Assembly (NCBI GenBank): GCA_041660565.1
Contig: JBAZWC010000001.1
Location: 70,197 to 134,196, forward strand
DNA from: Patescibacteria group bacterium
GTDB lineage: Bacteria > Patescibacteriota > UBA1384 > CAJBMM01
Length of the DNA: 64,000 nucleotides
Direction of reading: 5' to 3'
The translations under genes and the position numbers were made by a program. Under the pieces are notes generated by a model. The model was not told the DNA's origin. It made no database searches and saw only the letters and a list, made by a program, of their open reading frames with translations. Shown one piece after another: positions 644-47,198 of this stretch; position 1 is the stretch's first letter, and every line of letters begins with the position of its first letter.

Positions 644-690
644 AAAAAATAAGCGGGTGGCCGCGTTTGCGGTCACCCTGGGCACGTCTG
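640..690 (-). terminator. Rho-independent terminator for the minus-strand gene 703..1479 (the hairpin may also serve argS)
   Basis: Inverted repeat GGGTGGCCGC-GTTT-GCGGTCACCC; on the minus strand it is followed by TTATTTTTTTT. Confidence 0.5.
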
Positions 691-702
691 ATGTTCTTTC
701 GC

Positions 703-1479
703 TCACTCGATTTGCAGGCTATCCGGCCTAATCCGGAGGCGACAGGTCGCCACACTGTGTGGCTTGACCTTGAGGATCTTGCCGACCTTCTTGCCGGCCC
801 TGACCGGATCATCGGCTTTGTTCGCGAAGTCGGCATCAACCCGAACAACGCTTAATGCACCCGTCTGGAAGGTTAGCGGAATGACGACCTCGCCGCCTCG
901 ATCCTCTTGAACGGCGAGAGTAGCTGATTTGCCGGAGTTGTCGACACTCGACCACAGCAATTCCGGCGTCACTTCGACGTCATTCAGTCTCCCTCGATCG
1001 AGGGTAACCTGCACTGATACGCCCGGGCCATCCTCGATGTCGAACTGAAAGCCGTTTACCTGTTTGACCAGTTGCTGCTCGCCCATCCTGATGTAGAACT
1101 TCCCGTTGGCGCCTGGCATCACGCGTCGTTCCACGGACCGTTCGATCACGATGTTCTTGACGCCGGTGTTCCAGACGGCGATGCACTCGACCTTGTCGGT
1201 CTGGCTGTCCGCCCGGAATTCGACCGGGATGACGCAGTCCTTGTTTGGGATGTAGCTGAGGACTGCCCCGTCTTCGGTCGTTTGGATCATCGCGTTGGTG
1301 GGCGCGCTGACAATCGTCGTCTTGGCGTAAAGCAGCCGTACTTGCACGGATCCTTCGTAGTAATTCGGCACTCGGGTAATCCAGGTGATTCGGCTCACCG
1401 TGCCTACTACGATAATAACGATCAAACATACCACCCACCACGGTATCTTGTCAGTGGGTCCCACGTTAGGGGGTCTCAC
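703..1479 (-). CDS. Hypothetical signal-anchored protein (N-terminal TM helix), high-GC gene
   Basis: 258-aa ORF with N-terminal hydrophobic helix WWVVCLIVIIVVGTV; about 58% GC versus about 40% in the flanks; shadow ORFs on both strands typical of high GC. Confidence 0.45.
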   Translation of the reverse strand: MRPPNVGPTDKIPWWVVCLIVIIVVGTVSRITWITRVPNYYEGSVQVRLLYAKTTIVSAPTNAMIQTTEDGAVLSYIPNKDCVIPVEFRADSQTDKVECIAVWNTGVKNIVIERSVERRVMPGANGKFYIRMGEQQLVKQVNGFQFDIEDGPGVSVQVTLDRGRLNDVEVTPELLWSSVDNSGKSATLAVQEDRGGEVVIPLTFQTGALSVVRVDADFANKADDPVRAGKKVGKILKVKPHSVATCRLRIRPDSLQIE

Positions 1480-1608
1480 AGCAGTCTCCTTTGTGTTGTC
1501 GATGGGGCGCTAGGAACTTGCCCCGAGTTGATGATTTATGTATATCACATTTTATAAAAATAGTCAATAAAAAAACGTGCAACAGTTCACAACTCTGAAA
1601 TAACTTTT

Positions 1609-1790
1609 CGCGTTCGAGTTTAGGACGTAAAACGTCCCGAAGCGAGAACGACATCGGTGAAAAGAATAGCTAGTTCTCGGTTTTACCTCGAACAAGAAAA
1701 ACGTAGACCAGACTTCTTGACCTTCCGAAGCTTTAGCGTATGAGGTTAGTCTGTTTTCTTAATAACACAATAAATCGTGGTCTACAAGAA
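1609..1790. repeat. Composite palindromic repeat (GGACGTAAAACGTCC / GAGAAC..GTTCTC module plus CGTAGACCA..TGGTCTACAAG module)
   Basis: Related copies at 9589-9682, 38454-38490 and 49290-49450. Confidence 0.6.
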
Positions 1791-1821
1791 CGAATTGACA
1801 TCCGGACTCGCTCAAGCAATT

Positions 1822-3987
1822 TTATAGATCAAATTGATACACGCTATCGCCAACTAGAATCCAGCCGCGTTTGGATTTGGTGGAAATATAACTTTGTTTA
1901 ATATCACCGAGTGTGGTTTGATACTGCCCGGAGTATTGGCCGTCTTTAGACGCCTCAATAATACGATTTTTGTCTTGAATAAATATTGAATTTCCCGAAC
2001 TATCAGCAAAAATCCGTGCTGGGGAGTCGAGTCCACTGCCGGGCTCAGGAATCTGAATCGGCCCGAACCCAATTGAATTGCCTTTAGTGAATTTGGATAC
2101 ATCGCCCGAATTAAATAGTAGATAAATGTTGCCGTCATTGGTAATGTCTATTGCGCTAGAGTTGGACAGCGTACTTTTAGCCAAGTATGCGGTAACCGCC
2201 GTGAATTTATAGTTGGCGGTGCCGGTAAATTTCCAAATTTGCCCCGAGTCTTTCTCTAGTACATATAGATTTTGCTGATACCACGTTGCCGCTTTAATAC
2301 CGGGCCACTTCTCGGTTGTGGGTAGCGACAACTGAATTAATTGATTATTATTGTCGGTTAAAATAAGCTGCACTTTATTATCACTGGTTGCAACTAAAAT
2401 TTGGCGAGTTAGCTCAAACATAGTGAAGTAGGTAATTTTTGCCCCGTTGCTGGCGGAAAAAATGATATCCGGCGAGGTATTTTTACCCAAAATTTGTCGG
2501 GTAATTTTGGTGCCGTTAGAGTTTGTGGCAAATAAGTATTGGCCAATTATACCAAACCACGTTGTGTCGCCACTAACTTTGGTTATTACGGTAGGGTTAA
2601 TAATGGCGGTGTGATTTATTTCCAATAATAACTGGTTATATTTTGTGGTTATCGTTATTACGTCGCTACTGTCTTTGGGCAAGGTGCTTAGAATGTCGTT
2701 GGCTTTAACCAAATTTGTCCGAGCTAAGTCTGGATTTGTCTTTTTATTCAGCGTGGCAACATCTAAAAATTTATTAGCATCGGAAATTTTTTGGGTAATG
2801 TTGGCGGTAGAAGTGGTGGTGGAGTTTTGATGTTGAGTTCGGTTATATATTGATATCCCCACAATCAGAACCAAAACTAAGGATGAGGCTAATATGGTAA
2901 TTGGTTTGACTTTATTGAATTTACGCGAGGTTTTAACTATCCAGCTTTGGGCATCAACAAAAATGTGAAACAGTGAATGGCTAATTTTTTGTCCTGATGA
3001 GCGTTGCAATTTGGGTGTACCGATCCGAATTTGCGGCTGTGAAGGCTCTTCCGCGTCGCCTGGTTTATATTTCACCGGAATGACTGCCGTGTCTTTATCT
3101 GAGCTGTTGGTGTATTGCAGCTCGGTTTTTGGCTCGGTGTAAAATCGCTTGGCTTTTTGATACCCGCTTTTAACACCGCTGAATATCAGTTTGCTTAGAT
3201 CGGAAGCCGCATCTAATATGCTGTGCCGGAAAGATTTTTCAAAGTTGCCGACACTAGGATTTCGAGATGCTTTGATCACCCCTCCGACAGATGGTTCTAG
3301 TACGATGGTGTATGGTTCGGTTTGGGTATCGAGATCATCATTCTCAATTTTGACCACTACTGCTGATAAGTGATTCAGGTGCAATCTTCTGCCGGCTTGG
3401 AACATAGCCTGTACGCCATTGGTGGGGTTTGACTCGATTGATTGACATAAAAATTGCGGAGAAAAGTGCCGTCCAACCTCGGTATTGCCTAAAATTACAC
3501 TATCGCCGACTGATAATTGCCCAGAGGTTAAATTGGCAAAGGTTTTGTGTACCAATACTCGTCCGGTAATGTTTGCGGTGTTGTCAAAAATGGGTGAGTA
3601 GGTTTGTCCTCTAATAACCGCACCGGTAACTTTGCCGGTGTGAGACAAATAGACTTCGTTATTAACAAAAAGGGCAATCACTGCGTGAATGTGCCCCACC
3701 CAATCATTATTTCCGTTCTCGGCCAATTCGGCCAGCGCCAGGTTTATCTGCTTAATACAATCTTCAAACTGATAGATAGGGGATTTTCGCTCCTCCGAAA
3801 AATATTCGTTTTTAAGACAATCAATGATGGTTTGTTCAACTATTTGACCGAAAGACCGGGGTAGGGGGATATCGATAATATAAACAATATCCCCAAAACT
3901 AAGATCGTTTGGATGATTCAACACGCCCGAGGCAAGGGTGCGCTCGTGTGTGCTTATTGTTGATATTCTGGCTATTGATAACGCCAA
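1822..3987 (-). CDS. Hypothetical membrane protein: about 330-aa cytoplasmic N-terminal domain (weak PP2C/SpoIIE-like GDS motif), one TM helix, large extracellular repeat (beta-propeller-like) domain
   Basis: 721-aa ORF; TM segment ITILASSLVLVLIVGISIY; Ser/Thr/Asn-rich repetitive C-terminal half. Confidence 0.5.
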   Translation of the reverse strand: MALSIARISTISTHERTLASGVLNHPNDLSFGDIVYIIDIPLPRSFGQIVEQTIIDCLKNEYFSEERKSPIYQFEDCIKQINLALAELAENGNNDWVGHIHAVIALFVNNEVYLSHTGKVTGAVIRGQTYSPIFDNTANITGRVLVHKTFANLTSGQLSVGDSVILGNTEVGRHFSPQFLCQSIESNPTNGVQAMFQAGRRLHLNHLSAVVVKIENDDLDTQTEPYTIVLEPSVGGVIKASRNPSVGNFEKSFRHSILDAASDLSKLIFSGVKSGYQKAKRFYTEPKTELQYTNSSDKDTAVIPVKYKPGDAEEPSQPQIRIGTPKLQRSSGQKISHSLFHIFVDAQSWIVKTSRKFNKVKPITILASSLVLVLIVGISIYNRTQHQNSTTTSTANITQKISDANKFLDVATLNKKTNPDLARTNLVKANDILSTLPKDSSDVITITTKYNQLLLEINHTAIINPTVITKVSGDTTWFGIIGQYLFATNSNGTKITRQILGKNTSPDIIFSASNGAKITYFTMFELTRQILVATSDNKVQLILTDNNNQLIQLSLPTTEKWPGIKAATWYQQNLYVLEKDSGQIWKFTGTANYKFTAVTAYLAKSTLSNSSAIDITNDGNIYLLFNSGDVSKFTKGNSIGFGPIQIPEPGSGLDSPARIFADSSGNSIFIQDKNRIIEASKDGQYSGQYQTTLGDIKQSYISTKSKRGWILVGDSVYQFDL

Positions 3988-4401
3988 ACTAAACCACCTT
4001 TAAGTTGCTTATTTCTATTGTATGCTTTGAGTGGCGTATGGCGCAAGGTGCAAAAAATTTTGCATTTATGTTACAATATATTTGCTTCCGGCTGTCCAAC
4101 ACATTGCTTCTTACTTTTTTTTAGGTGGTTCAACATTTATGTAAAGTATTATACCTTACATGTGCGAACTACCACTTGGGATTTTTGAAGCCCAATGTGC
4201 TGTGATGGCCGGAGCAGAATTTGAAAACAGAAAACGATCCCCAATTCTACGAGTCGAAGACTCGTAGAGATGACAGCGAGCAGAGAACAAGCGTTCTCTT
4301 TTTTGTTATTGAATTTGGCCGTTTTTGCCTAAGATAAAAAAAGTAGACCCGGCTGATATGGAGGTCAGCCGGGTCTTGGCTCGCAGGGTTTGGTGGTCGT
4401 G

Positions 4402-4671
4402 TCACTGTCGATCACGGGCTTCTTGGGCCAGTCTTGGGTTGAAGCCCAGCTCGGTGGTTCGCACCGGCCGTCCGACAAGTTCCTCGACACGCTTAAGGAC
4501 CATGTCCATGTAGACCTCCTTCGGCCCCGTTAGCAAATCCGTGACCTCCTTCTCACGCTCCTCGCCGGTCATCTCCTCTGCCTTCCTGCGTGTCTTGAAG
4601 TTCTCAACACACGTCGGGCAGGCCTCGGTACAGCTCGTGCCACAAACGTGGCATATTCGTTCCTCTGGCAC
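4402..4671 (-). CDS. Small Cys-rich (CxxC x2) hypothetical protein, high-GC
   Basis: 89-aa ORF with CHVCGTSCTEACPTC; lies in GC-rich patch 4330-4700; coding status uncertain. Confidence 0.3.
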   Translation of the reverse strand: MPEERICHVCGTSCTEACPTCVENFKTRRKAEEMTGEEREKEVTDLLTGPKEVYMDMVLKRVEELVGRPVRTTELGFNPRLAQEARDRQ

Positions 4672-4797
4672 AGGACCCCTCCCTCTTAGCCGTGATTCTC
4701 TAAGAACGATAATAACTATACCATATCGTTACGTTATGGTCAATATATTTTTGCTGTGAACCCAATAACTGATTCAAAAAAATCTCATTAGGTAGTT

Positions 4798-4845
4798 GTC
4801 ATTCCGGCTCGCCAGCTGGCGGGTGATCCGAAATCCAGTCTATGT
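4798..4845. repeat. GTCATTCCGG...CCGGAAT palindromic repeat unit
   Basis: Same family as copies at 7675, 12094, 13220, 13974, 15126, 38412 and 47199. Confidence 0.55.
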
Positions 4846-5014
4846 TTGTTATCATATAGATCATGAATCTTCCCTTTGACCTGCGGCCAGAGTTACTGGT
4901 TTCTGACAAAATCATTAAGTTTAGGATGACATGAACGGTAGTTTTTGGATTCACGATTATTGTTATTGAATTTGGATGATTTTCTGCTATCGTGTGGCGT
5001 GAGGGGGTGGTACC

Positions 5015-5761
5015 ATGAACATCGAGTTTTCAGGCTACGGGTTCACTGTCCTATGCACCTACTTACCCGTTGACATTTTCGAGCGGGCAATGAGCTGGCT
5101 AGCAAAAGGAGGACAAGGTCGGCTGACGTTTGAGCCGTGGGATGATGGGATTGTCGACAATCCCTGGGCATCAACCGGCATCGGTGGTAGGACGATTCGT
5201 CGACTTCGGGATCTCGAATCGAATGGCCTAGTTTGCCTTGGGTGGCGTCGTTACGAGCTGGTCAAGTGTGTCGATTCGATGGTGCTACTTAGTTACGCAC
5301 TGTGGCCAGTGCTGGTTGGACAGTACGAGATGGCTCGTCCAAACAACGCGGGTCTACAAGTGGATATCAACGAGATCACGCGGGGCTATCGGGTGGCAGC
5401 CAACTTTGACCCAGTGGTTTGGGACGTGATCGAACACGCTGGATTCAAGGGGCTACTGCCCGCCATCAACACGCACATTCGTCATTGGTTTGAGGAATTC
5501 GCGGATGGACGCGAAGATGGGCAGTACACCACCGTGTTCAATGGGAAGGATGGGCCTACGTTGATGTTCTATCCGCCGTCTACCAGCCGTGGTGTATGGA
5601 TTAGCGGGTCACGTGAACCCGGGATCGATGGGCACCAGCTGTATGACCACAACACCGATGGCGCTCTTGATGTGATGGGGCATTTGGTGGCACTCTGTAC
5701 CGTGCTAGATCACTGCCGAAAGGCAATCGACTCGGGAATTCTCAGCACTGACGGTGCGTAG
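5015..5761 (+). CDS. Hypothetical protein, high-GC
   Basis: 248-aa ORF, about 55-58% GC; no recognisable motif. Confidence 0.4.
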   Translation: MNIEFSGYGFTVLCTYLPVDIFERAMSWLAKGGQGRLTFEPWDDGIVDNPWASTGIGGRTIRRLRDLESNGLVCLGWRRYELVKCVDSMVLLSYALWPVLVGQYEMARPNNAGLQVDINEITRGYRVAANFDPVVWDVIEHAGFKGLLPAINTHIRHWFEEFADGREDGQYTTVFNGKDGPTLMFYPPSTSRGVWISGSREPGIDGHQLYDHNTDGALDVMGHLVALCTVLDHCRKAIDSGILSTDGA

Positions 5762-5844
5762 GCAATTGCCTACGCACCTCTTATTTATCTAGTCATATGA
5801 AACATGCTGTTTTTTTGATAATGTGTAAAGTACGAATCAAAATA

Positions 5845-5878
5845 CAGGGTATAGCTTAGTTGGTAAAGCGCTGGGGTT
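5845..5878 (+). other. Orphan tRNA 5' half (acceptor 5' strand CAGGGTA, complete D-arm GCTT/AAGC, anticodon-stem 5' strand CTGGG), then abruptly replaced by a GC-rich repeat
   Basis: CAGGGTA-TA-GCTT-AGTTGGTA-AAGC-G-CTGGG read directly. The 7-nt acceptor strand is exactly complementary to TACCCTG of the 3' half at 6455-6499. Confidence 0.4.
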
Positions 5879-5975
5879 GGCCTCCGCCCGTAGAGCTACG
5901 CCCGGAGGGCTCCGCCCGTAGGCTCCAGCCTGTAAGGCTTACGCCTGGAAGGGCTACGCCCGGAGGGGGTCAAAA
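5879..5975. repeat. GC-rich CTACGG/CCGTAGG/CTCCGCC module repeat
   Basis: ggcctccgcccgtagagctacgcccggaggg... ; the family recurs at 6330-6356, 6421-6460, 6499-6560, 19270-19400, 30960-31010, 35720-35800, 40790-40870, 49200-49240 and 60540-60640. Confidence 0.6.
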
Positions 5976-5977
5976 AA

Positions 5978-6238
5978 ATGTGCTATGTATATATATTGAT
6001 CAGCCAAGTTGATATGGAGCGGTATATTGGGTCAACTGTGAATCTTAGTGTTAGGCTGTCAGAGCATGATCTGGGGTTGGTAAATTCTACAAAAAATAGA
6101 CGCCCATTAAAGTTGTATGCTTATCAAATATGTGAGAATATCGGAGAAGCGAGAAAAATTGAGCATATGTACAAGGGTAGCCGGGGTGCTTATGACCGGG
6201 CGATTAAAAAAGGTCAATTGATTATCTTCGGGGAGTAG
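5978..6238 (+). CDS. Small stand-alone GIY-YIG nuclease domain protein
   Basis: YVYILISQ...RYIGSTVNLSVRLSEH matches the GIY-YIG core (GIY..YIG..R..H); the stop codon TAG (6236-6238) lies inside the 5' acceptor stem of tRNA-Pro. Confidence 0.7.
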   Translation: MCYVYILISQVDMERYIGSTVNLSVRLSEHDLGLVNSTKNRRPLKLYAYQICENIGEARKIEHMYKGSRGAYDRAIKKGQLIIFGE

Positions 6239-6305
6239 CATAGCGGCCTAATGCGCTGGGCTGGGGGTCCAGAGACCGGAGGTTCAAATCCTCTCTCCCC
6301 GACCA
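6229..6305 (+). tRNA. tRNA-Pro (anticodon GGG)
   Basis: Manual cloverleaf: acceptor CGGGGAG/CTCCCCG, D-stem GCAT/ATGC, anticodon stem CTGGG/TCCAG with loop CTGGGGG, T-arm GGAGG-TTCAAAT-CCTCT, discriminator A, encoded CCA. Confidence 0.8.
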
Positions 6306-6324
6306 ATTTGAAACTGGAATCGGG

Positions 6325-6397
6325 CTGGGCTCCGCCCGTAGGGCTACGCCCGGAGGGGGTCCAGAGATCGGCAGTTCGAGTCTGCCATCCCCGACCA
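6325..6397 (+). tRNA. tRNA-Pro-like 3' portion: anticodon stem with a 24-nt palindromic insert in the loop, variable loop, T-arm GGCAG/CTGCC, acceptor 3' strand ATCCCCG-A-CCA. No local 5' acceptor or D-arm
   Basis: GGGGTCCAGAGATC identical to tRNA-Pro 39-48; compensatory T-stem and acceptor changes relative to 6229-6305; the expected 5' partner CGGGGAT was not found nearby. Confidence 0.4.
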
Positions 6398-6454
6398 TGA
6401 TATAATGAAGTCTGCGACTAGGCTGGCCTCCGGCTCTACGAGCGGTAGGCTCGG

Positions 6455-6499
6455 AGAGGGGTCCAGAGACCGCCAGTTCAAGTCTGGCTACCCTGACCA
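6455..6499 (+). tRNA. tRNA-Pro-like 3' half (TCCAG, AGACC, T-arm GCCAG-TTCAAGT-CTGGC, acceptor TACCCTG-A-CCA)
   Basis: Compensatory T-stem. The acceptor 3' strand pairs perfectly with the orphan 5' half at 5845-5851; the upstream sequence is a repeat module, not a D-arm. Confidence 0.4.
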
Positions 6500-6588
6500 T
6501 CCCTCGCTCCCTCCTACGCTAAAGCTTCGGAAGGTCAAGAAAGCTACGGATGGCACGGCCAAAAATTAAAAAAATACAAAGGATATGA

Positions 6589-7116
6589 ATGAAAATCAAT
6601 AAACTTAAAAAAATTACCACCGGTGCAGCTCTGTTGACTGGACTTTTTGTGGCATCGGTTCAATCCACTTTTGCGATGTGCCCGGTGTGCACGGTAGCGG
6701 TGCTTGGTGGGGTTGAGTTGTCGCATTATCTCGGAATCGATGATGTGATAACCGGGCTATGGATTGGTGCATTAATGGTTTCGATTACAATGTGGACATC
6801 AAATTGGTTGCGCAACAAAAAATGGCGTTATATTCCCAAAGGCGCCGCATTCTGGTTTATTATTTGGGTTTTAATGACTTATGTCCCGCTCTATCAATAT
6901 CGATTTTTTGGGCATAACAACAGCCAACTCTGGGGGATTGATAAAATTATCATCGGATCGATGTTTGGGGTGGTGATTTTTGCACTGGCGGTGGTGGTTC
7001 ATAATTGGCTTAAAGCCAGAAACGGTGATAAAGTTTACGTGCAATTTCAACGTGTCATTATCCCGGTATCATTTTTGATAATCGGCAGCGTGGCGTTTTA
7101 TTTCATTACTAAATAA
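6589..7116 (+). CDS. Hypothetical integral membrane protein with signal peptide
   Basis: 175-aa ORF; N-terminal signal LLTGLFVASVQSTFA; at least 4 hydrophobic segments. Confidence 0.5.
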   Translation: MKINKLKKITTGAALLTGLFVASVQSTFAMCPVCTVAVLGGVELSHYLGIDDVITGLWIGALMVSITMWTSNWLRNKKWRYIPKGAAFWFIIWVLMTYVPLYQYRFFGHNNSQLWGIDKIIIGSMFGVVIFALAVVVHNWLKARNGDKVYVQFQRVIIPVSFLIIGSVAFYFITK

Positions 7117-7651: not shown

Positions 7652-7674
7652 GTTGAGATCGGACTTTATGAGCT

Positions 7675-7750
7675 GTCATTCCGGATTTAATCCGGAATCT
7701 ATATAATAAAGTCTTTTATAGTCTGGATTCCGGGTCGAGCCCGGAATGAC
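7675..7750. repeat. Double-hairpin palindromic repeat (GTCATTCCGG..CCGGAATCTATATAA // TTATAG..GGATTCCGG..CCGGAATGAC)
   Basis: Perfect terminal inverted repeats; family copies listed under 4798. Confidence 0.65.
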
Positions 7751-12093: not shown

Positions 12094-12204
12094 GTCATTT
12101 CGACGTTGAAGAAAGCGTCAGGTACTGTCATTCCGGGCTTGACCCGGAATCTATATAAAAAAAGTCATTTATAGACTGGATTCCGGATCTAGTCCGGAAT
12201 GACA
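12094..12204. repeat. Composite palindromic repeat (TGTCATTTCGAC fragment plus GTCATTCCGG double-hairpin unit)
   Basis: gtcattccgggcttgacccggaatctatataaaaaaagtcatttatagactggattccggatctagtccggaatgaca. Confidence 0.65.
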
Positions 12205-13204: not shown

Positions 13205-13219
13205 ACAAACCTCAGCATT

Positions 13220-13324
13220 GTCATTCCGGACTTGATCCGGAATCTATATAAAAGACTGGAAGGGATTTATTCTTAGATTTCTCCAACACAGTCGTGGTGA
13301 CCCACTCCTAGGGTCGAAATGACA
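13220..13324. repeat. Hybrid palindromic repeat (GTCATTCCGG hairpin unit plus AGATTTCTCC...GGGTCGAAATGACA module)
   Basis: Shares both module types. Confidence 0.6.
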
Positions 13325-13430: not shown

Positions 13431-13459
13431 TTGACAAATATAATCTAGTATGTTAATAT
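13431..13459 (+). promoter_or_regulatory. Near-consensus sigma70-type promoter (TTGACA-17 bp-TAATAT)
   Basis: Perfect -35 hexamer, 17-nt spacer, 5/6 match at -10; no ORF in the next ~700 nt, T-run at about 13612-13618. Confidence 0.35.
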
Positions 13460-13973
13460 GTAAGAGTTGCAATCAAGCAAGGCTAAAACCAAGCGCGATA
13501 AGCAGCAGAACCCAAAAACAAAAACGTAAAAATGGCTTGTCTAACATATGTCGGTAGCATATCAAGACGCCCCTTCCTCTATATAGGGATTGGACGTCGG
13601 ATGCGGACAGGTCTTTTTTAAAACAAAGCTTTGTTTTTCTGGCATATGGGATTTATCCCACGCGCTGGAGGGCAGATACCTTTTGAATAAGAGGTGACTG
13701 TTCCAAAGTTAGATCAACCAAGTCTTGGCAAAAATTGTCAAATTACTGGTTCACCTAATCCTTTGGAACAGAACTCTTCTTTCAGCAAAAGTAGGTTGAT
13801 GGCGAAGAGAGCCGTAAATATCAGATCTTGTAGAATTTTTCTTCAAGACGGCGCTCGCCAAAAACTGCTGACAAGTAGACACATGGAGCGGGGACAACAC
13901 CACCTAAAAGTAGATACCCCAGAACCGGCACCTTAACAAATTATCCTTTTCTCTGGTTGACATACATTTTATT

Positions 13974-14061
13974 GTCATTCCGGACTAGATCCGGAATCTA
14001 TGTATAAGAATCCTCGTCTTAGGCTAGGAAAGATTTATTCTTTACTAACCCAAGCCGATGG
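13974..14061. repeat. GTCATTCCGG hairpin unit plus the about 60-nt module GGCTAGGAAAGATTTATTCTTTACTAACCCAAGCCGAYGG
   Basis: The same 60-nt module recurs at 15170-15224. Confidence 0.6.
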
Positions 14062-14215
14062 AGTTTAACTTCGTCTGGCCTACCCCTCCCCGGGGTTAAT
14101 GCCGTCACGGCGTTGGGGAAACGGCATCTGGTGCGTATGGCGTAAGCCGCGCACCAAGTATTCGGTCAGCGTAACCGTAAGGCGAAGTTGACCAGATCCC
14201 TGGGAGGGGAAAAAG

Positions 14216-15037
14216 ATGGAATCCGCTAACGGGCAGATCGTCGACGCGTCTCATGTCGTCGACAATCCAGAGTCGGATCTCGTGACGATCTTGTCGCAGA
14301 ACGGTGGACGGACTATCGAAGTGATAGTGCCCGACGTCTGTGACCACGAGACGGTTTCTGAGCGCCTTTCGAGGCTGCTTGGAAAGCACGTTTCCGACTC
14401 CGACCTTTCCTCCGTTTGGGTTGGAGAGGAAGAGAAGCAATGCGCTTCTCTGATAGTCTCCTCCGACAAGGAGGGAGTACTGCAGGTCGCCCATAAGGAG
14501 GGCAACAAGATGAACCGCAAGCAAGCTTTGGCGCTGATTGGCGCCGCCGTGTCGTTCGGGTACACCGTGGTGGAAACGTTCGCGGACAACCGCGCGCTCC
14601 CCGCGTTCAGTCCTGCAGGCCGCCCGGGTTCCTGGTCGGATGTCGCGGAAGCGTATTACGACCGCTTCTTCGACCTTGATGACCTCTCCCAGTGGGAGTC
14701 GGTCGTCGGGCTGCTCCAGAAATGGTCCCACACGCGTGAGGCCTTCGGGATTCTGATCCCGACCCGGGACGATTTTGTCCTGGAGATCGAGCGCGCTGTT
14801 CGGCAGCGCCCGATCGACGGGGAGATGTACGTTCCCGAGGCTATGCCGCTTGCCGAGGCGGTCTGTAAGATGATCATGCTCGGCGCCACCACGGAGGAAA
14901 TCCTCGGCTGGGTCGAGGAGATCAACCTCCACACTGACGGCCAGGCACCGATCCTGTTCGACGCAATCGAGCAGGCGAACGAGCCTCGGTCGGAGCGGGG
15001 TGGCCGCGGCCGCGAGGCGGCCGAGGCCAGCAACTAG
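14216..15037 (+). CDS. Hypothetical protein, cassette 1 of high-GC island
   Basis: 273-aa ORF, about 60% GC, strong RBS GGGAGGGG 7 nt upstream; the opposite-strand ORF 14105..15130 is judged a GC shadow. Confidence 0.5.
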   Translation: MESANGQIVDASHVVDNPESDLVTILSQNGGRTIEVIVPDVCDHETVSERLSRLLGKHVSDSDLSSVWVGEEEKQCASLIVSSDKEGVLQVAHKEGNKMNRKQALALIGAAVSFGYTVVETFADNRALPAFSPAGRPGSWSDVAEAYYDRFFDLDDLSQWESVVGLLQKWSHTREAFGILIPTRDDFVLEIERAVRQRPIDGEMYVPEAMPLAEAVCKMIMLGATTEEILGWVEEINLHTDGQAPILFDAIEQANEPRSERGGRGREAAEASN

Positions 15038-15044
15038 TTCCACG

Positions 15045-15116
15045 GAGGGGTGGGTGCAACCGCACCCGCCTCTCCTCATTCCAAAGTTTCCAAAAGGTTG
15101 GGGACTTTGTAGATGA
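15045..15116 (+). promoter_or_regulatory. Conserved inter-cassette element, copy 1: GC hairpin (terminator-like) plus 45-nt box CTCCTCATTCCAAAGTTTCCAAAAGGTTGGGGACTTTGTAGATGA
   Basis: Hairpin GGGTGGGTGC-AAC-CGCACCCGCC; 28-nt palindrome CAAAGT..ACTTTG at 15082-15109; repeated 4 times in the island. Confidence 0.6.
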
Positions 15117-15125
15117 TTTCCTCTT

Positions 15126-15224
15126 GTCATTCCCGCGAAGGCGGGAATCCAGTCTATGAAAAACTTTCGATAATCCTTGGTTTAGGCTAGGAAAGATTTA
15201 TTCTTTACTAACCCAAGCCGACGG
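15126..15224. repeat. GTCATTCC(CG..CG)GGAATC hairpin plus 60-nt GGCTAGGAAAGATTTATTC module
   Basis: Low-GC host-type repeat inserted between cassettes 1 and 2. Confidence 0.6.
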
Positions 15225-15287
15225 ATGGCTTGATGTCCGAGTCTATAAGTCCTGACCCAAATGGGCAGGCAGGGCAAGGAGATTTCA

Positions 15288-15758
15288 ATGGAATTCGACG
15301 CTTCGTACAAACGGGCAAAGCGGCTGCTCGGTCAGAACTTCAGGGCGATGTGTCGTGAGGCTCACGCCCTGGCAGCGATGGGTTTGCCCATCGCGGTCTA
15401 CCAAGACCATGTCGTTCTGCTCCCAACGTATGGGACGACGAACGATTTCTTCTATCTCATGGCCGAGGGGATAGAGCATTGGTACGTCCGGTTCTGGTGC
15501 TGCAACGCCGAACCGGAGTTCGGCCAGACCGACTACCATGAGTCCCAGCAGATTGGCTCAGGCAGTCTGGAGTTGGTTGCCCGATGGTTCCGCGAGCAGT
15601 TAGAAGCTCGTGGCTGCCAGGCCGCCCAGCTGGAGAAGTTGGCCGCTGTTATGGCGGCTATCCTGCCGGAGGCGGCTTCCGTCGCGGCTCCGACAGACTT
15701 GGAGCCACCGAGGTTCACCCTCGGTGATCAGCTCCGAGAGATGGAGACCGGCAAGTAG
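15288..15758 (+). CDS. Hypothetical protein, cassette 2
   Basis: 156 aa from ATG at 15288 with RBS AAGGAG 7 nt upstream (the ORF track extends to 15261). Confidence 0.5.
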   Translation: MEFDASYKRAKRLLGQNFRAMCREAHALAAMGLPIAVYQDHVVLLPTYGTTNDFFYLMAEGIEHWYVRFWCCNAEPEFGQTDYHESQQIGSGSLELVARWFREQLEARGCQAAQLEKLAAVMAAILPEAASVAAPTDLEPPRFTLGDQLREMETGK

Positions 15759-15765
15759 CTCACAC

Positions 15766-15839
15766 GGAGGGGTGGGTGCGCAAGCGCCCACTCCTCTTCA
15801 TTCCAAAGTTTCCAATACGTTGGGGACTTTGTAGATGAA
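15766..15839 (+). promoter_or_regulatory. Conserved inter-cassette element, copy 2 (hairpin plus 45-nt box)
   Basis: ggaggggtgggtgcgcaagcgcccactcctc followed by ttcattccaaagtttccaatacgttggggactttgtagatga. Confidence 0.6.
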
Positions 15840-15843
15840 GAAA

Positions 15844-15955
15844 TGACTCCCCGTAGGGGATGGTATACACTTCGGGTGGGTCGCGACGACTCGCACCTAC
15901 CCACGACCCGCCTGACTAGGGGTGAAACTCTGGCAGGCAACAGGGGAGAACGGAA
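15844..15955 (+). ncRNA. Conserved about 110-nt leader type A, copy 1 (candidate cis-regulatory 5' UTR)
   Basis: More than 90% identical to 16791-16899 although the downstream ORFs are unrelated; contains CCCCGTAGGGG and GGGTGGGTCGCGACGACTCGCACCTACCCACGACCC stem potentials; ends in RBS GGGGAGA. Confidence 0.4.
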
Positions 15956-16618: not shown

Positions 16619-16716
16619 ACATACGCAATAGAAGTTTTTGGATCGTTCTTCGGCAAAAACGATCTGGCATCCCGATGCGCATAATCGGGAGGTTCGCGAT
16701 CCAAATCGCATTCGTT

Positions 16717-16788: not shown

Positions 16789-16790
16789 AT

Positions 16791-32751: not shown

Positions 32752-35670
32752 ATGAGTGCGTGGCCAATCAAAAATGAAACTCAAAGCCGGGTTTTAAAGT
32801 TATTATCAACCTTGGTTGATTTAGGTTTTGTTAAATCTGAAGTAATTGACAACTTAAGAGCTGAGCTAAAACCGCTTCCATCCGAGGTTGAGCTGGTTGA
32901 GTATTTAGTTAAGCATTTGATTGCCGATTACGACCAGATTAATCGCGCCTATGCCACCTTATTAAAATTACCGTATTTGCAACTACCACAAGAGGTAAAT
33001 AAAGCGTCGCTCATAAAATTACCAAAAGCTGTTTGTGAAGAAAAACAGATGGTGGTTTATGGGACAAATGACAAAGAATGGGATATTGCGGTGGCAAAGC
33101 CGGCTTTATTGCAGGAGAGCCAATCCGGTGTTCTGACTAAATTATCTAAAGCAGAAAAGATCAAATATAAAATCGTAATTACTTCGCCTGATTCAATAAA
33201 AAGATGGCTTAATCAGTATCCGGATCAGAGGACGGAGGACGGAGGACAGAAGACAGAATCATCTCTGTCATTTCGACCCGGGGAGCTGGTTCGAGCGACC
33301 ACGTTGGAGAAATCTCAAGAAAGAATCCCTTCCACTTTAGCCAATTCAGAAAAAGCGGCGTTGATTGGTCGAGCGATTGACCCGAAAGTACTACATAAGA
33401 TTCCGGTGGCCATCGCAAAAGACGTTGGCATTATTGCATATCAGTTTAGAGATAATGTTTTTGAAGTTGCAACAGTAGATCCAATGAGTCAAAAAGTACT
33501 AAACGCTGTTCATTACATTCAAGATCATAACAACGTTAAAATCAATTTACACCATACATCGCGTGACGATATTGATTACGCTATTTCGCAGTATGGGCTT
33601 CATGACCGCATCTTTAACCAAAAAAATCTGTCCGGGCAGAAAATTGATCACGAGCTTTTGTTAAAAATACCTTACAATGTGGCAAAAAAGTATCGTTTTG
33701 TGGTGTTTGGTAAGATCATTACAAGCCAAGGATTAACTGACAATTCAATTTATCAAGTTGCGTCAGACAATCTAAATAATGCCGAGGCAAATATTATTTG
33801 GGGTTATATTGAAAAGAATAACGGGGTTACCCTGTATTTGTACCCAACCGATATCGGTAGCATTGACTACGCGTTGTCTTTATATCCGGAAACAACCGAT
33901 CACAAAGAACAGCTCGCGTTACCGGGCGTTAAAAAAGCTGAGTGGTTATTGCCGCCACCCGTTCCTCATAATCCAGTCCCTGCAACAGCAGCGGTAGTTA
34001 AACCGCAAGCCAAGCCTAACCCTCAAAACGAACAACCTTTGCCGCCCACAGATATACCGGAAGAAAAGCCATCTTTCTGGCCCAAATGGTTAGTTTCATT
34101 GTTTGGTGGTAAAAAAGACAACGAGATTATAATTTCGGAAGATCTTATCTCGCCACCAGGTACTGTACCGAACGCGGCTACATCGGCAATGTTAGGAAAT
34201 CCAAATCCAACTCAACCGCCAATACCGGTGCCGACAAAACCGGCAGAGGTAAAACCACCCGAACAAAAACCACCGAGTCCTGCTCCTGTTCCTCCAAAAC
34301 CCCCTGAAGAGGTGGCAATAGAGCAAAAGACATTTATTCTTAAGACTAAAGAACCCTATGGCGCCAAAGAGAAAGAAGCTGCCCCAAAGCCGGTGGGGGA
34401 AGAAGACGAAGATAACTTAGGGAGCTTGCTTGACCACGATGTAACTACTCTGGAAGAACTGCAGAAGATAATTCAAGAAGGATTTGTACCACGAGTGGTG
34501 GCAGCGCTAGTCAGTTATGCCATCACTTTACACGCCTCAGACGTTCATATCGAAGCAGAAGAAAAAGATGTCCGCGTGCGTTATCGTGTGGATGGTATGT
34601 TGCAAGACGTAATGCGATTACCGGTAGAACAACACGCTGCCATTATTAGTCGTATTAAAATATTGTCCAAGCTGAAAATTGACGAAACTCGTATTCCTCA
34701 AGATGGGCGATTTGACGTAGCGTTTAAAGATCGTGCGGTCGATTTGCGTGTATCATCTATGCCAACGGTGCATGGTGAAAAGATAGTTATGCGTATTTTA
34801 GACAAGACGCATGGTATCATGTCACTGGAAGATTTGGGTGTACTGGGTAGAGCATTTGACATTGTTATCGAAGCCATTAAAAAACCATATGGCATTGTGC
34901 TTTCAACTGGTCCAACCGGATCTGGAAAATCCACCACTTTGTATGCCATTTTAAACCGAATCTCGGTGCCTACGGTCAACGTAATCACACTTGAAGATCC
35001 GGTTGAGTATGAAATAGCCGGGGTTAACCAAGCGCAGATCAAACCAAAAATTGGTTTCACTTTTGCAGAAGGGTTAAGATCGGTTTTGCGCCAAGACCCA
35101 AATATCGTGATGGTGGGAGAGATTCGAGACGCTGAAACCGCCAGCATGGCTACCCACGCAGCCTTAACCGGTCACTTAGTATTATCTACCCTACACACCA
35201 ATGATGCTCCTGGTGCCCTACCACGTCTAATAAATATGGGTATTGAGCCATTCCTAATTACCTCGTCAATTAACTGCGTTGAAGCTCAGCGCCTGGTTCG
35301 TCGAATCTGTCCGAACTGTAAAGAAGAAGTTGAGCTGCCGGAAACGGTTATTAAAGAGATCACCGATGAGCTCAATAAGATACCGGAAAATAATCCCAAA
35401 GATCGTGCCCGGGTGACAAATCCGATGAAGTTCTATCACGGTAAAGGATGCGACAAGTGTCAAAACGGATATCGTGGGCGAATTGGTATTTACGAAGTGA
35501 TGGCCATGAGCGAAAAGGTGGAGCAACTGGCAATCGAAAAAGCATCTGCCGCCTCTATTCAAGCTCAGGCAATTAAAGAAGGCATGATTACCATGAAGCA
35601 AGACGGATTGCTAAAAGCACTAATTGGTATGACCACGGTTGATGAAGTGTTACGCGAAACCTCGGAGTAG
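32752..35670 (+). CDS. pilB: Type IV pilus assembly ATPase PilB/GspE family with extended N-terminal region (about 600 aa: repeated T2SSE_N-like segments and a Pro-rich linker)
   Basis: Walker A GPTGSGKSTT, Walker B/Asp box, His box, tetracysteine CPNC...CDKC; contains an in-frame repeat insertion at 33229-33336. Confidence 0.85.
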   Translation: MSAWPIKNETQSRVLKLLSTLVDLGFVKSEVIDNLRAELKPLPSEVELVEYLVKHLIADYDQINRAYATLLKLPYLQLPQEVNKASLIKLPKAVCEEKQMVVYGTNDKEWDIAVAKPALLQESQSGVLTKLSKAEKIKYKIVITSPDSIKRWLNQYPDQRTEDGGQKTESSLSFRPGELVRATTLEKSQERIPSTLANSEKAALIGRAIDPKVLHKIPVAIAKDVGIIAYQFRDNVFEVATVDPMSQKVLNAVHYIQDHNNVKINLHHTSRDDIDYAISQYGLHDRIFNQKNLSGQKIDHELLLKIPYNVAKKYRFVVFGKIITSQGLTDNSIYQVASDNLNNAEANIIWGYIEKNNGVTLYLYPTDIGSIDYALSLYPETTDHKEQLALPGVKKAEWLLPPPVPHNPVPATAAVVKPQAKPNPQNEQPLPPTDIPEEKPSFWPKWLVSLFGGKKDNEIIISEDLISPPGTVPNAATSAMLGNPNPTQPPIPVPTKPAEVKPPEQKPPSPAPVPPKPPEEVAIEQKTFILKTKEPYGAKEKEAAPKPVGEEDEDNLGSLLDHDVTTLEELQKIIQEGFVPRVVAALVSYAITLHASDVHIEAEEKDVRVRYRVDGMLQDVMRLPVEQHAAIISRIKILSKLKIDETRIPQDGRFDVAFKDRAVDLRVSSMPTVHGEKIVMRILDKTHGIMSLEDLGVLGRAFDIVIEAIKKPYGIVLSTGPTGSGKSTTLYAILNRISVPTVNVITLEDPVEYEIAGVNQAQIKPKIGFTFAEGLRSVLRQDPNIVMVGEIRDAETASMATHAALTGHLVLSTLHTNDAPGALPRLINMGIEPFLITSSINCVEAQRLVRRICPNCKEEVELPETVIKEITDELNKIPENNPKDRARVTNPMKFYHGKGCDKCQNGYRGRIGIYEVMAMSEKVEQLAIEKASAASIQAQAIKEGMITMKQDGLLKALIGMTTVDEVLRETSE
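33229..33336. repeat. In-frame repeat insertion within pilB: (GGACGGAGGAC)x3 microsatellite plus TGTCATTTCGACCCGGGGAGCTGGTTCGAGCGACCACGTTGGAGAAATCTCAAGAAAGAATCCCTTCC
   Basis: About 95% identical to the intergenic copy at 37072-37141; translated as ...QRTEDGGQKTESSLSFRPGELVRATTLEKSQERIPS... without interrupting the reading frame. Confidence 0.7.
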
Positions 35671-37071: not shown

Positions 37072-37141
37072 TGTCATTTCGACCCGGGGAGCTGGTTTGA
37101 GCGACCACGTTGGAGAAATCTAAGAATAAATCCCTTCCAAG
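37072..37141. repeat. Half-element repeat (same sequence as the pilB in-frame insert)
   Basis: ttgtcatttcgacccggggagctggtttgagcgaccacgttggagaaatctaagaataaatcccttcc. Confidence 0.65.
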
Positions 37142-40662: not shown

Positions 40663-40704
40663 ATACTTTAGGGGTGTTGGGGTGATTTGGGGAGTTGTGA
40701 AAAA

Positions 40705-40913
40705 ACCCTTCTCCTCTGGAGGAGAAGGTGGAACGCTAAGCGTCCCTTGACCCCGCTTAGCGGGGTGCCCGTAGGGCGGATGAGGAGCTCCTCACCTCTC
40801 CGAGCCGTAGGCTCCAGCCCGTAGGACTTACGCCCGGAGGGTCTACGAGCCGGAGGCCGGTCTTCGACCACCCTCTCCTCAAGGAGGAGAGGGAAACCGA
40901 GGAGTCGAAATGA
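40705..40913. repeat. About 210-bp mosaic palindromic element (CTTCTCCTCTGGAGGAGAAG; GGAACGCTAAGCGTCCC; CCCCGCTTAGCGGGG; GAGGAGCTCCTC; CTACGG module; CTCTCCTCAAGGAGGAGAG; ..GTCGAAATGACA)
   Basis: An inverted copy lies at 44826-44975 and a related copy at 60455-60650; overlapping ORF 40668..41153(-) judged spurious. Confidence 0.7.
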
Positions 40914-44741: not shown

Positions 44742-44794
44742 AAAATATCACCCCCGAGGTGGTATCCCTTCACACTCGGGGGAGATATTTCAAA

Positions 44795-44975
44795 TTCTAA
44801 GCACTAAGCACTAAATTCTAAAATGGATGTCACTTTTGTCCCCTCTCCTCGTGAGGAGAGGGTGGCTGTAAGCCGGGTGAGGAGCTCCTCATCCACCCTA
44901 CGGGCACCCCGCTAAGCGGGGTCAAGGGACGCTTAGCGTTCCACCTTCTCCCCGAGATGAGAAGGGTATTAGCAT
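44795..44975. repeat. Inverted copy of the 40705-40913 mosaic element (lacking the central CTACGG module) preceded by a TAAGCACTAAAT microsatellite
   Basis: The reverse complement of 44826-44975 aligns with 40705-40790 and 40866-40913. Confidence 0.7.
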
Positions 44976-45318
44976 AGCGTCTGTCACGCAAACTATTGAC
45001 AAAGTTTAAAAAATAGTATAGAGTGTTGGTGTATGAGTAACACATATTACCAATATGGTCTAAAAACGGCAGATGCTTTCTAGCGCATTCTCTTGATGAG
45101 TTTGCGATTTTTTGCATCGCCCTTTATTCTATATATAGATATGATGTTAGAACCTTAATAACATTTCAAGAACTCCTCTAGTTAGTGCCGCCAAACAAGC
45201 TGGCGCACCGTATCTGGCTAAACCCGGATGTGGTTCGACATACTTGGCACACTCGCCGGCTTAAAAGGCTGGCACTATCTATCGCCACACGTAGGTGCGG
45301 CGAGGAGGAGACAGTAAG

Positions 45319-47091
45319 ATGAAGCGAAATCTAATTCTGCTTCTCGCCGCTATGATCGTCATCGCGACGGTCGGATGTGGTGGAGGCGGTGGGGGTTCTA
45401 ACCCCCCGGCCAAAGAGACTCGGTCGGCCAACGTGGCCACCGCGACCTTTGGTTCGCAGTATCTCAAGACGCACAATCTGTTGGTGCAGTGGGTCGGCGA
45501 CAAAACCGGCACTAACTACGGCACCTGCAAGATCGAGAGCGTCAACAAGACATCGGGTACCGGCACGCTGTCGGTCAACCCCGATGGGAGCATCAGCTTG
45601 ATCAACGATCTTCCGGCTGATGTCTTCAACTTCACGTTCGTGACGCATCATCCCCCAATCGAATCCGGAGATCCGCAATACGACCAGCTACTGACGGGCA
45701 CGGCAACGATCACCATCGTCCCCGAGTCCACATCAACCAACCCCACCAACTTCAACATCCCACAAGGCGGGCAAATGACGCTGGTGGCGCGGGCGCAAAA
45801 CGCCCGAGCTACGGGAGCTGAAGTTGTCCGCGTTACTGCGGCTGACACGTCCCGCGTTCCGGTGAACGTTGAGGCCACATGGGTGATCAACCCGCCGAAT
45901 GCGGGTAACATCGTCAAGAACACCGGCGAGACAACGTACACCTTCACAGGCGCCGCGGCTTTCACTGGCACGTTCACGCTAACGGCACATATCGCTAACG
46001 CGATGGACCAGCCGGCAGCAGTCAACGGCAACGCCATTGCCCACCCGACCATTGGGGTTTCCAATCCTACGGAAGGGCAGACTGTCAGCGGCACGGTTAC
46101 CGTGCAGTTTGCCGCCCAGAACGCCACAAGCGTGTACTGGAAGGTAGACTCTGGTACCGAGATGTTGGCATCAAGCAATTCGTTCCCGCTTGACACGACT
46201 ACTCTATCCAACGCCAACCACACCCTGAATTTTAGGGCAGTGGGGCAGTTGGAGACCGTAACGCTGTCTCGCGCGTTTACGGTTAACAACCAAGTGCCGT
46301 ATGACCCGGGGAAGGCCGGCAAGCTGACCTTCACCGGTGGTACGTACAATACCAACTCGGATAACTCCGGCAAGATGGTTAGTACGTTCTACATGTTCAA
46401 GACTGGCGGGGCGGTGGCCGTTGATAAGGCGGATACCATCCGCTTCTTCAACGCCGCGGGCACGGTGGTGAACACCGTGCAGACCGCCGACTATGGCTAC
46501 CCGGTGGCCGTTACCTCTGGTGATGTTGTCTGGGCTGTGCGCCGGAACTTTGGGCAAGTTCGGCTACTCAACAAGACCGGAGCAGTTGTCAACACTCTGA
46601 CGGTTGCGGGGGCTAATGACGCTGCTTACGTGGCCCAAACCGGTAAGGTGCTGGTTAGCGGCAACAACGGTATTCGCGAGTACGACCCGAACACCCTGGC
46701 GTACACCCAGCTACGCACCGACCGTGCCACTGCCGTAACTGGCGACGATCGGTACGTATTCTATCAGGGTACAGGCGACGGATCCGATCCGACTATGCTG
46801 ACAATCTGGAAGTTGGATCGGACAACCGGGTCAATCGTTGCCATCGCCAAACCGGGCATCCTGTTCAGTCTGTATAGCCCGCCCGGATTCAACTGCGTCG
46901 TGGGCACCGACGGCACGTCCAAGACCGTGAAGGTCTGGGACAAGTCGGGAGGCCTGTTGTCCTCAACCCCGCTCCCGAACGGGGAGCAGGTTGTGGGCAT
47001 CGGCGTTGACATGAGCGGAGATGGTAGCGGGCTGTTCATTACGCCTGACATCTCGCTCTTCCAGTATCGGGCACAGATTGTGCCCAACTAG
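45319..47091 (+). CDS. High-GC surface lipoprotein with Ig-like/beta-propeller-like domains
   Basis: Lipobox IATVGC followed by GGGGGG linker; about 58% GC; RBS GAGGAGGAG; start at 45319 (the ORF track extends to 45295). Confidence 0.5.
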   Translation: MKRNLILLLAAMIVIATVGCGGGGGGSNPPAKETRSANVATATFGSQYLKTHNLLVQWVGDKTGTNYGTCKIESVNKTSGTGTLSVNPDGSISLINDLPADVFNFTFVTHHPPIESGDPQYDQLLTGTATITIVPESTSTNPTNFNIPQGGQMTLVARAQNARATGAEVVRVTAADTSRVPVNVEATWVINPPNAGNIVKNTGETTYTFTGAAAFTGTFTLTAHIANAMDQPAAVNGNAIAHPTIGVSNPTEGQTVSGTVTVQFAAQNATSVYWKVDSGTEMLASSNSFPLDTTTLSNANHTLNFRAVGQLETVTLSRAFTVNNQVPYDPGKAGKLTFTGGTYNTNSDNSGKMVSTFYMFKTGGAVAVDKADTIRFFNAAGTVVNTVQTADYGYPVAVTSGDVVWAVRRNFGQVRLLNKTGAVVNTLTVAGANDAAYVAQTGKVLVSGNNGIREYDPNTLAYTQLRTDRATAVTGDDRYVFYQGTGDGSDPTMLTIWKLDRTTGSIVAIAKPGILFSLYSPPGFNCVVGTDGTSKTVKVWDKSGGLLSSTPLPNGEQVVGIGVDMSGDGSGLFITPDISLFQYRAQIVPN

Positions 47092-47127
47092 TTCCGGTAG
47101 CACCTCCCTAGTGTGGTGAAATATCCG

Positions 47128-47178
47128 CACACCCCCGACTCAGGTCATTATGACTGGGCGGGGGCTTTTTTTTATACA
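47128..47178 (+). terminator. Rho-independent terminator
   Basis: CCCCCGACTCAGGTCAT-TATGACTGGGCGGGGG hairpin followed by CTTTTTTTTT. Confidence 0.6.
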
Positions 47179-47198
47179 AAAAATCCTAAATTCCTTAA

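Follow-up and report, generated by a model that had tools for sequence, protein, structure and literature searches.

Genomic islands have already been described in Patescibacteria, the bacteria of the candidate phyla radiation (CPR). A survey of 125 genomes listed hundreds of islands, which made up as much as 13% of the genome length, with donors that were mostly unrecovered or other Patescibacteria, and proposed competence pili for the entry of the DNA (PMC12455944, mSystems 2025). Here we study a 64-kb stretch (64,000 nt, in the following the window) of the 516-kb contig JBAZWC010000001.1 of a Patescibacteria group bacterium. The window contains five sharply bounded GC-rich patches: four lone islands with one gene each (I1, I2a, I2b and I4) and an array of five genes (A1 to A5). 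With a probability of roughly 0.78 we interpret the patches as several independent lateral acquisitions, from unsampled donors of ∼58–62% GC, by a Berkelbacteria-like genome of ∼43% GC. They share with the islands of the survey that they are compositionally atypical segments in a streamlined CPR genome. They differ in their size of 0.35–4.8 kb, in consisting almost entirely of orphan open reading frames (ORFans), in being un-ameliorated (the GC content at third codon positions, GC3, is raised by ∼0.30) and in their spacing, with five of them within 47 kb and no mobility gene nearby. Lateral islands are known in this group, and the window adds a further, unusually clear case and not a novel type. 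The remaining novelty lies in how densely un-ameliorated ORFan units are packed, in the lack of mobility machinery in the window and in the structured-RNA architecture of the array.

Several described systems resemble parts of the locus. Hendrix and colleagues reportedly defined phage morons as single genes between backbone genes, with their own transcription signals including a factor-independent terminator and with an odd base composition. The lone islands likewise have their own terminator, promoter-like sites and a deviant composition. However, morons lie within phage or prophage genomes, whereas the islands lie between cellular housekeeping genes and none of their proteins matches PHROGs. 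The promoter-stem-loop (PeSL) regulatory cassettes that Arbiol et al. are said to have described in 2010 from the hyperplastic regions of T4-type phages resemble the array in that ORFans are separated by a repeated stem-loop with a conserved flank and that regulatory units are common to unrelated open reading frames (ORFs). In our case there is no sigma-70-type promoter in the conserved flank and the array resides in a cellular chromosome instead of a phage genome. Integron cassette arrays also consist of tandem unrelated ORFs on the same strand without detectable promoters, each followed by a repeated imperfect palindrome. The array is not an integron because IntI and attC boxes are missing; attI and the attC consensus are absent as well and no GTTRRRY core is visible at the ends of the repeated module. 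Finally, bacterial hammerhead ribozymes often flank single genes in prophages, and they have been proposed to process a long transcript into RNAs of gene length (Perreault et al. 2011, PMC3088659). The array shares with these blocks a canonical hammerhead core beside genes of no constant identity. It differs in having one hammerhead, with a double-hairpin module at the other gene boundaries, and in that the window contains no phage structural gene or integrase.

Patch boundaries

The GC content of the whole window is 45.4% and drops to 43.4% once the patches are excluded. In a scan with a 200-nt window only five stretches longer than 400 nt exceeded 53% GC: 606–1535, 4271–4740, 4978–6589, 14,005–18,952 and 44,743–47,183. 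An earlier note on this DNA had described sharply delimited patches of about 58% GC, and all five stretches coincide with the regions it named. We determined the edges with three-segment likelihood fits, which gained 19–135 log-likelihood units. I1 extends across 651–1525 (57.7% GC, flanks 42% and 40%), I2a across 4346–4695 (60.0%, flanks 42% and 37%), I2b across 4991–5755 (55.3%, flanks 37% and 35%), the array across 14,081–18,840 (59.2%, flanks 42% and 44%) and I4 across 45,181–47,160 (58.2%, flanks 45% and 46%). The region 4330–5760 had been taken for one patch. Its ORFs are indeed GC-rich, but they form two one-gene patches with an AT-rich spacer between them, and therefore the region as a whole reaches only 52.1% GC. 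The spacer between I2a and I2b measures ∼295 nt at 37% GC and contains a host repeat and promoter-like sites.

Composition of the island genes

We compared the nine island genes (I1, 258 aa; I2a, 89 aa; I2b, 248 aa; A1 to A5; I4, 590 aa) with the host genes of the window. All nine island ORFs show the coding pattern GC1 > GC2 < GC3. Their GC3 values range from 0.60 to 0.78 and do not overlap with the 0.33–0.50 observed for 36 host genes. No further ORF of the window has an island-like GC3 and no gene shows intermediate values. The codon preferences are reversed: AAA accounts for 15% of the Lys codons in the islands compared to 81% in the host, ATT for 23% compared to 59% of the Ile codons and TTA for 3% compared to 31% of the Leu codons. 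The proteins themselves are enriched in Gly, Ala, Arg and Pro and depleted in Phe, Tyr, Met, Ile, Asn and Lys (the FYMINK residues), which make up a fraction of 0.20 in the islands compared to 0.28 in the host (p = 1e-5). This amino-acid shift points to a long evolution in a GC-rich background.

The GC-normalised tetranucleotide signature gave a similar picture. Four of the five patches were less host-like than each of 200 host chunks of the same size. The correlation with the host was r = 0.19 for the array (host chunks: 0.80 ± 0.05), 0.13 for I1 (host chunks: 0.54 ± 0.10) and −0.03 for I2a, ∼3 standard deviations under the host-chunk mean. Profiling of tetranucleotides, GC content and codon usage, proposed earlier as a check, thus marks the patches as foreign in every respect. 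The correlation between islands was weak as well (r = 0.26–0.37), which disfavours a single donor for all patches. As the patches are so weakly alike in their oligonucleotide signature, the donors need not be one organism.

Integrity of the assembly

Contamination or a chimeric assembly had to be excluded for such patches: GC-rich reads of another organism could have been joined into the CPR contig at repeats. Most islands do touch host repeats, and the short-read contigs available for comparison end in repeats. We used the Logan contigs from run SRR18595301, which represent the build of a second assembler. Three of them (L001, L017 and L018) match the window at 100% across nine of the ten island junctions. 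The identical stretches cover 1–5874 with all junctions of I1, I2a and I2b, 14,029–15,081 with the left edge of the array, and 44,922–47,241 (L017) with both junctions of I4. Furthermore every block lies exactly within an intergenic gap without cutting a host gene and each block is a complete unit of leader, ORF and terminator. The T-run of the I1 terminator is formed by the A-run next to the ArgRS stop codon, and repeats of the host type are found inside the array, between A1 and A2. With nine of the ten junctions reproduced by a second assembler a chimera is unlikely, and we give this explanation barely any credence.

Insertion sites and genomic relatives

The islands are flanked by cellular genes, namely ArgRS, a 721-aa protein (h721), tRNA-Pro, a type IV pilus cluster and TypA/BipA, and are always located in the gaps between them with no host gene interrupted. 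Searching with h721 we identified as the nearest genomes L002, a Berkelbacteria metagenome-assembled genome (MAG) with 39% identity, and L003, a MAG that is labelled Saccharibacteria. The backbone order ArgRS / h721 / tRNA-Pro(ggg) / h175 / h174 / h257 / h228 is retained in L002. In this genome ArgRS abuts h721, so the position of I1 is empty, and the ∼400 nt from h721 to tRNA-Pro contain no gene, so the positions of I2a and I2b are empty too. Compared with this backbone, I1, I2a and I2b are therefore insertions. In L003 the place of I1 is taken by another membrane ORF, of 185 aa and host-like GC, which suggests that this gap is a variable spot. The horizontal acquisition that the earlier note had put forward as a candidate explanation is thus supported by foreign GC3, codons, amino acids and tetranucleotides and by the empty syntenic sites of three genes.

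L002 also contains a lone family-less ORF of 172 aa (18,192–18,710, minus strand) with 52% GC and a GC3 of 0.52, in a genome of 38.6% GC with a median GC3 of 0.32. One-gene GC-rich insertions may be recurrent in the Berkelbacteria-like lineage.

Host repeats had been noted beside some of the islands. We found copies at 1697–1758, 4797–4835, 13,973–14,062, 44,876–44,970 and 47,203–47,241, and every island is touched by host intergenic repeats. The copy at 47,203–47,241 (GATTCCGG...CCGGAATGACA) is 90% complementary to the copy at 4797–4835 between I2a and I2b and forms an inverted pair with it. Intergenic repeat families of 40–95 nt in both orientations occupy most intergenic gaps of this small genome. 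Their ends read TGTCATTCCGG...CCGGAATGACA or TGTCATTTCGACCC...GGGTCGAAATGACA, and examples are located at 7674–7711, 12,126–12,163, 13,219–13,324, 21,929–22,002, 33,266–33,315, 37,072–37,139, 40,702–40,858, 44,876–44,970 and 62,402–62,475. One copy (22,916–22,956) lies inside the coding region of a transketolase-like gene.

Homologue searches and possible donors

The islands had been said to carry orphan proteins. This holds for eight of the nine, for which we detected no family. PHROGs and PADLOC gave no match for any of the nine proteins, and all nine remained below threshold in Pfam and NCBIfam. Borderline profile matches to Big_7 (I4; 23.9 bits compared to a threshold of 24.1), Head_binding and Fer4_10 were below threshold and we did not rely on them. 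A concatenated tblastn search with the nine proteins returned nothing from 50,697 phage records and 72,556 plasmids. Eight island proteins are present in the cluster collection, on one 516,109-bp contig of a Patescibacteria MAG (locus tags WC773_); at 90% identity their clusters contain only alternative start calls from this contig, and the cluster of I2a is a singleton. No mutual relatedness was found among the nine, so paralogy between them was dismissed. Four proteins (I1, I4, A5 and I2b) were searched in depth. In a collection of 5.8 billion protein clusters, NCBI genomes included, I1, I4 and A5 matched only themselves. A taxonomic affinity could thus be obtained for I2b, whose relatives lead to CPR and other uncultured bacteria, and for none of the other three.

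I2b is the exception among the orphans. An exhaustive HMMER search returned 37 homologous clusters of the same length with ∼20–46% identity, and one spurious animal match. The alignment of the family shows the motif Q..DHNTD...H..LC.VLKHCR. The closest relative, 46% identical, is encoded on a contig of 44% GC. The relatives were found in small genomes of CPR-like and other uncultured bacteria, one member being annotated from a Pacebacteria MAG, and they are lone genes among housekeeping genes in unrelated neighbourhoods. One context includes SWIB and SET genes and another a neighbour with a PEP-CTERM-like tail, and therefore the family probably extends beyond CPR. The gene is mostly at the local GC of its genome. 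It exceeds its flanks by 7–10 points in three contigs (L004, L015 and L019) and by 11.5 points in the window, and one member occurs in a 2.3-kb contig with 54% GC and a GC3 of 0.68. This is the pattern of a roaming accessory gene. The AlphaFold2 model of I2b is confident (predicted local distance difference test, pLDDT, of 90.8) but resembles no solved or viral structure convincingly.

The presence of the I2b family in other CPR genomes bears on the possibility that the patches are native genes whose GC content was raised locally by GC-biased repair or conversion, or by selection on expression, with no transfer involved. Best hits within the same lineage were the outcome for which the earlier note had reserved the words 'merely GC-heterogeneous'. 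Such a process has very little chance of being the explanation, as the shift affects all three codon positions, the amino acids and the GC-normalised tetranucleotides and not just synonymous sites, genes are absent from the syntenic sites of a relative, eight of the nine have no detectable family, even the closest I2b relative is just 46% identical and the window holds no gene with intermediate values.

A transfer from host to symbiont, with the islands originating from a high-GC actinobacterial host of the CPR cell, had also been suggested. The donor GC of ∼58–62% would suit many Actinobacteria and CPR cells carry DNA-uptake pili. The searches did not bear this out, since no island protein has an actinobacterial relative, with I1, I4 and A5 matching only themselves and the I2b relatives leading to small genomes of CPR-like and other uncultured bacteria. 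The organism clusters with Berkelbacteria-like MAGs and not with those Saccharibacteria lineages that are known epibionts of Actinobacteria. Among 130 donor events inferred for Patescibacteria, 109 were assigned to other Patescibacteria and only one to Actinomycetota (PMC12455944). We thus consider an actinobacterial source highly improbable.

Anatomy of the lone islands

The I1 unit (651–1525, minus strand) contains an ORF at 703–1479 with a GC3 of 0.72, which encodes a membrane-anchored ORFan of 258 aa. An N-terminal membrane anchor and an own terminator had been claimed for it and both are present. The terminator hairpin, read from the sequence at 653–678 (minus strand), is followed on its strand by a T-run from 642–651, for which it borrows the A-run adjoining the ArgRS stop codon. 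A promoter-like TTGACT-17-TATACA was found by eye at 1539–1567 (minus strand) in the AT-rich DNA just upstream of the leader. It was missed by the scan since its second hexamer does not end in T.

The I2a unit (4346–4695, minus strand) contains an ORF at 4402–4671 and a terminator at 4345–4376 that was called by the scan. The N-terminus of the 89-aa protein is CxxC-rich and zinc-ribbon-like, with six Cys within the first 20 residues, in line with its earlier description as Cys-rich. The scan also reported a promoter-like TTGACC-17-TATAGT with TG extension at 4715–4743 (minus strand, 10 of 12 matches). The unit is bracketed by a 16-bp direct repeat, TTGTTATTGAATTTGG, which the window contains twice without mismatch at a distance of 657 bp, at 4303–4318 and 4960–4975 (both plus strand). 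The right copy overlaps a promoter-like TTGAAT-N16-TATCGT before I2b, a site that was found by eye only. The I2b unit (4991–5778, plus strand) consists of an ORF at 5015–5761 for the 248-aa protein and a terminator at 5753–5778 called by the scan.

The I4 unit (45,181–47,173, plus strand) encodes a predicted lipoprotein. A 598-aa lipoprotein with ribosome-binding site and terminator had been reported here. The lipobox, the ribosome-binding site and the terminator are all present, but the start is most likely not GTG 45,295 but ATG 45,319, which is preceded by the ribosome-binding site GAGGAGGAG and yields an ORF at 45,319–47,091 with 590 aa. The lipobox ATVGC is followed by a Gly-rich linker and the protein is predicted to be all-beta; the single-sequence structure model was unusable (pLDDT 39). 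A bulged terminator is visible in the sequence at ∼47,132–47,173 and a promoter-like site with 10 of 12 matches lies upstream.

Strong Shine-Dalgarno sites precede all nine island genes, but also about half of the host genes, and therefore do not distinguish the islands from the host. The promoter-like sites of the lone islands sit in the adjoining AT-rich DNA. Each lone island is thus a complete expression unit similar to a phage moron, in which a GC-rich leader precedes a single ORF and an intrinsic terminator.

The array and its RNA structures

The array comprises five unrelated ORFans on the plus strand: A1 (14,216–15,037), A2 (15,288–15,758), A3 (15,956–16,618), A4 (16,900–17,475) and A5 (17,762–18,892). 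They share one orientation and are mutually non-paralogous. The upstream neighbour is a Fic/MerR protein. We detected no promoter of the sigma-70 type within the array; a strong one is located at 13,431–13,459, ∼620 nt upstream.

This site begins a segment at 13,431–13,640 (plus strand) with the best promoter match of the region, TTGACA-17-TAATAT with TG, followed by ∼170 nt without an ORF and a T-run. The segment has no Rfam match. It may encode a small RNA or mark where transcription of the array begins.

A double-hairpin module of ∼72 nt is found on the plus strand 3′ of A1 (15,044–15,116), A2 (15,766–15,838), A3 (16,716–16,788) and A4 (17,482–17,555). The copies after three ORFs are 85–96% identical and the fourth differs by a 1-nt indel. 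The folding z-scores range from −6.5 to −9.4. Hairpin 1 varies in sequence, with compensatory changes that maintain its stem. In hairpin 2 the sequence itself is conserved and the stem needs G-U pairs, and therefore it would act as RNA on the plus strand. The module has no T-run and is thus not a classical terminator. No copies occur elsewhere in the window, including the lone islands, nor did we find the module in viral and metagenome contig collections. Two leader types are common to different array ORFs, and Rfam at a relaxed threshold reported no riboswitch or other ribozyme in the array leaders.

Five unrelated ORFs of the same orientation with no sigma-70-type promoter in between, a module repeated after four of them and two leader types shared by different ORFs could also be accounted for by site-specific capture. 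The array, and perhaps the lone genes too, would then be cassettes of an integron-like system or an undescribed analogue, and the module would be the recombination site. We regard this as improbable. The window encodes no integron integrase or other recombinase, the module has no attC R/L boxes and the G-U pairs of hairpin 2 point to RNA and not to DNA. In addition the lone islands have no module, and its absence from the viral and metagenome collections also speaks against capture. A broader version would be that the array and the scattered single genes form one undescribed cassette system of CPR bacteria or their phages, in which GC-rich ORFan units are shuffled at the double hairpin and the two leader types and the transcripts are cut by ribozymes or RNases. 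We mention it as a long shot. If true, it would provide streamlined genomes with an integrase-free dedicated route to sample new surface and accessory proteins.

Downstream of the array, 76 nt after the A5 stop codon and ∼440 nt before a tRNA-Thr/Tyr/Thr cluster, we identified a probable type III hammerhead ribozyme at 18,968–19,027 (plus strand; Rfam RF00008, E-value 1e-5 for the whole window). The core is intact across 18,973–19,021, with GUC and the predicted cleavage site after C18,975, CUGAUGA at 18,993–18,999 and GAAA at 19,018–19,021. Stem II is located at 19,000–19,017. Stems I and II are each 5 bp long and stem III comprises 3 bp and the A15.1-U16.1 pair. The pattern CUGAUGA-GUCGU...ACGAC-GAAAC occurs in 38 IMG/VR viral contigs, with an identical 30 nt in most of them, in which stem II and loop II are also the same as here. 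Stems I and III covary in the IMG/VR copies, stem I at four pairs. Among the papers in the literature library that we searched, none mentions hammerhead ribozymes together with Patescibacteria. An 84-nt near-perfect hairpin with 23-nt arms (87% complementary) lies at 19,083–19,166 between the hammerhead and host repeats. The Rfam match to mir-228 at 19,078–19,174 was dismissed as spurious, as it reflects a long hairpin only.

Possible route of acquisition

Under lateral acquisition the patches would represent at least five separate recent insertions into intergenic gaps of a conserved backbone, with the imported genes yet to drift to the host composition. The DNA probably entered by uptake through type IV pili and competence, or by phage; a full type IV pilus set is encoded in the window. 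As neither integrase nor transposase nor terminal repeats were found, we infer that integration took place by illegitimate or microhomology recombination in the repeat-rich intergenic DNA. This route is a guess because a mobility gene, an attachment-site duplication and a terminal repeat are all lacking. The islands are merely close to tRNA genes and are not inserted at a tRNA 3′ end. The array is most likely a fragment of a phage or another mobile element, since it combines five ORFans on the same strand, no internal promoter, RNA modules and a closing hammerhead. This arrangement suggests that a long transcript would be cut or stabilised into gene-length pieces at the RNA structures.

A number of observations weigh against this interpretation. 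Searching 51 ORFs with Pfam, including every long non-overlapping ORF of the window, we found no integrase, transposase or recombinase domain. The island edges show no terminal repeats above shuffled controls and no attachment-site duplication, with the 16-bp direct repeat around I2a as the sole exception. No donor or near-identical copy was found in the collections searched, and the direction and source of the transfer are consequently deduced from composition and from a single distant relative (39% identity of h721). The evidence from empty sites covers I1, I2a and I2b: in L002 the synteny beside the array is broken by an IS30-like transposase and there is no I4 locus. The score of the hammerhead (41.8 bits) is below the Rfam gathering threshold of 48.5. 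The link of the array to phages consists of this hammerhead and the architecture, and no array protein matches a phage protein. Moreover, the inference covers 64 kb of the contig.

Other features of the window

The tRNA-Pro gene downstream of I2b (6229–6305) is surrounded by tRNA-like pieces, one resembling a 5′ half (5848–5875) and two resembling a 3′ half (6347–6397 and 6449–6499). Across 5848–6500 the pieces are interleaved with GC-rich tandem repeats of 14–28 nt and a GIY-YIG endonuclease ORF at 5978–6238; L003 has a GIY-YIG ORF next to its tRNA-Pro, too. The arrangement could reflect tRNA genes that are split or contain introns, or copies in decay. For tRNA-Trp(cca), ARAGORN predicted a 71-nt gene at 21,041–21,111, which the Rfam tRNA model did not report even at E ≤ 0.1 for the whole window.

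The region 49,473–59,161 (minus strand) has a GC content of just 35–40% and forms a low-GC compositional island of its own. It encodes an RHS-repeat protein of 2125 aa (52,784–59,161, minus strand), followed by family-less ORFs at 51,815–52,774 and 51,165–51,791. The arrangement resembles a polymorphic toxin accompanied by candidate immunity genes.

Implications

Fresh foreign DNA makes up ∼14% of this 64-kb stretch of a streamlined CPR genome, and almost all of it is without relatives in very large databases. The window is a clean example for annotators that patches of deviant GC in CPR MAGs can be real, and trimming them as contamination should be avoided. The GC content of a donor is poor evidence for a particular host. 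With its hammerhead, the array is a compact example on which RNA-level processing in a CPR genome could be tested. The products of two imported genes, the membrane-anchored I1 and the lipoprotein I4, are predicted envelope proteins, which would change the cell surface. Such imported envelope proteins could alter the attachment to a partner or the recognition by phages of this obligately associated cell.

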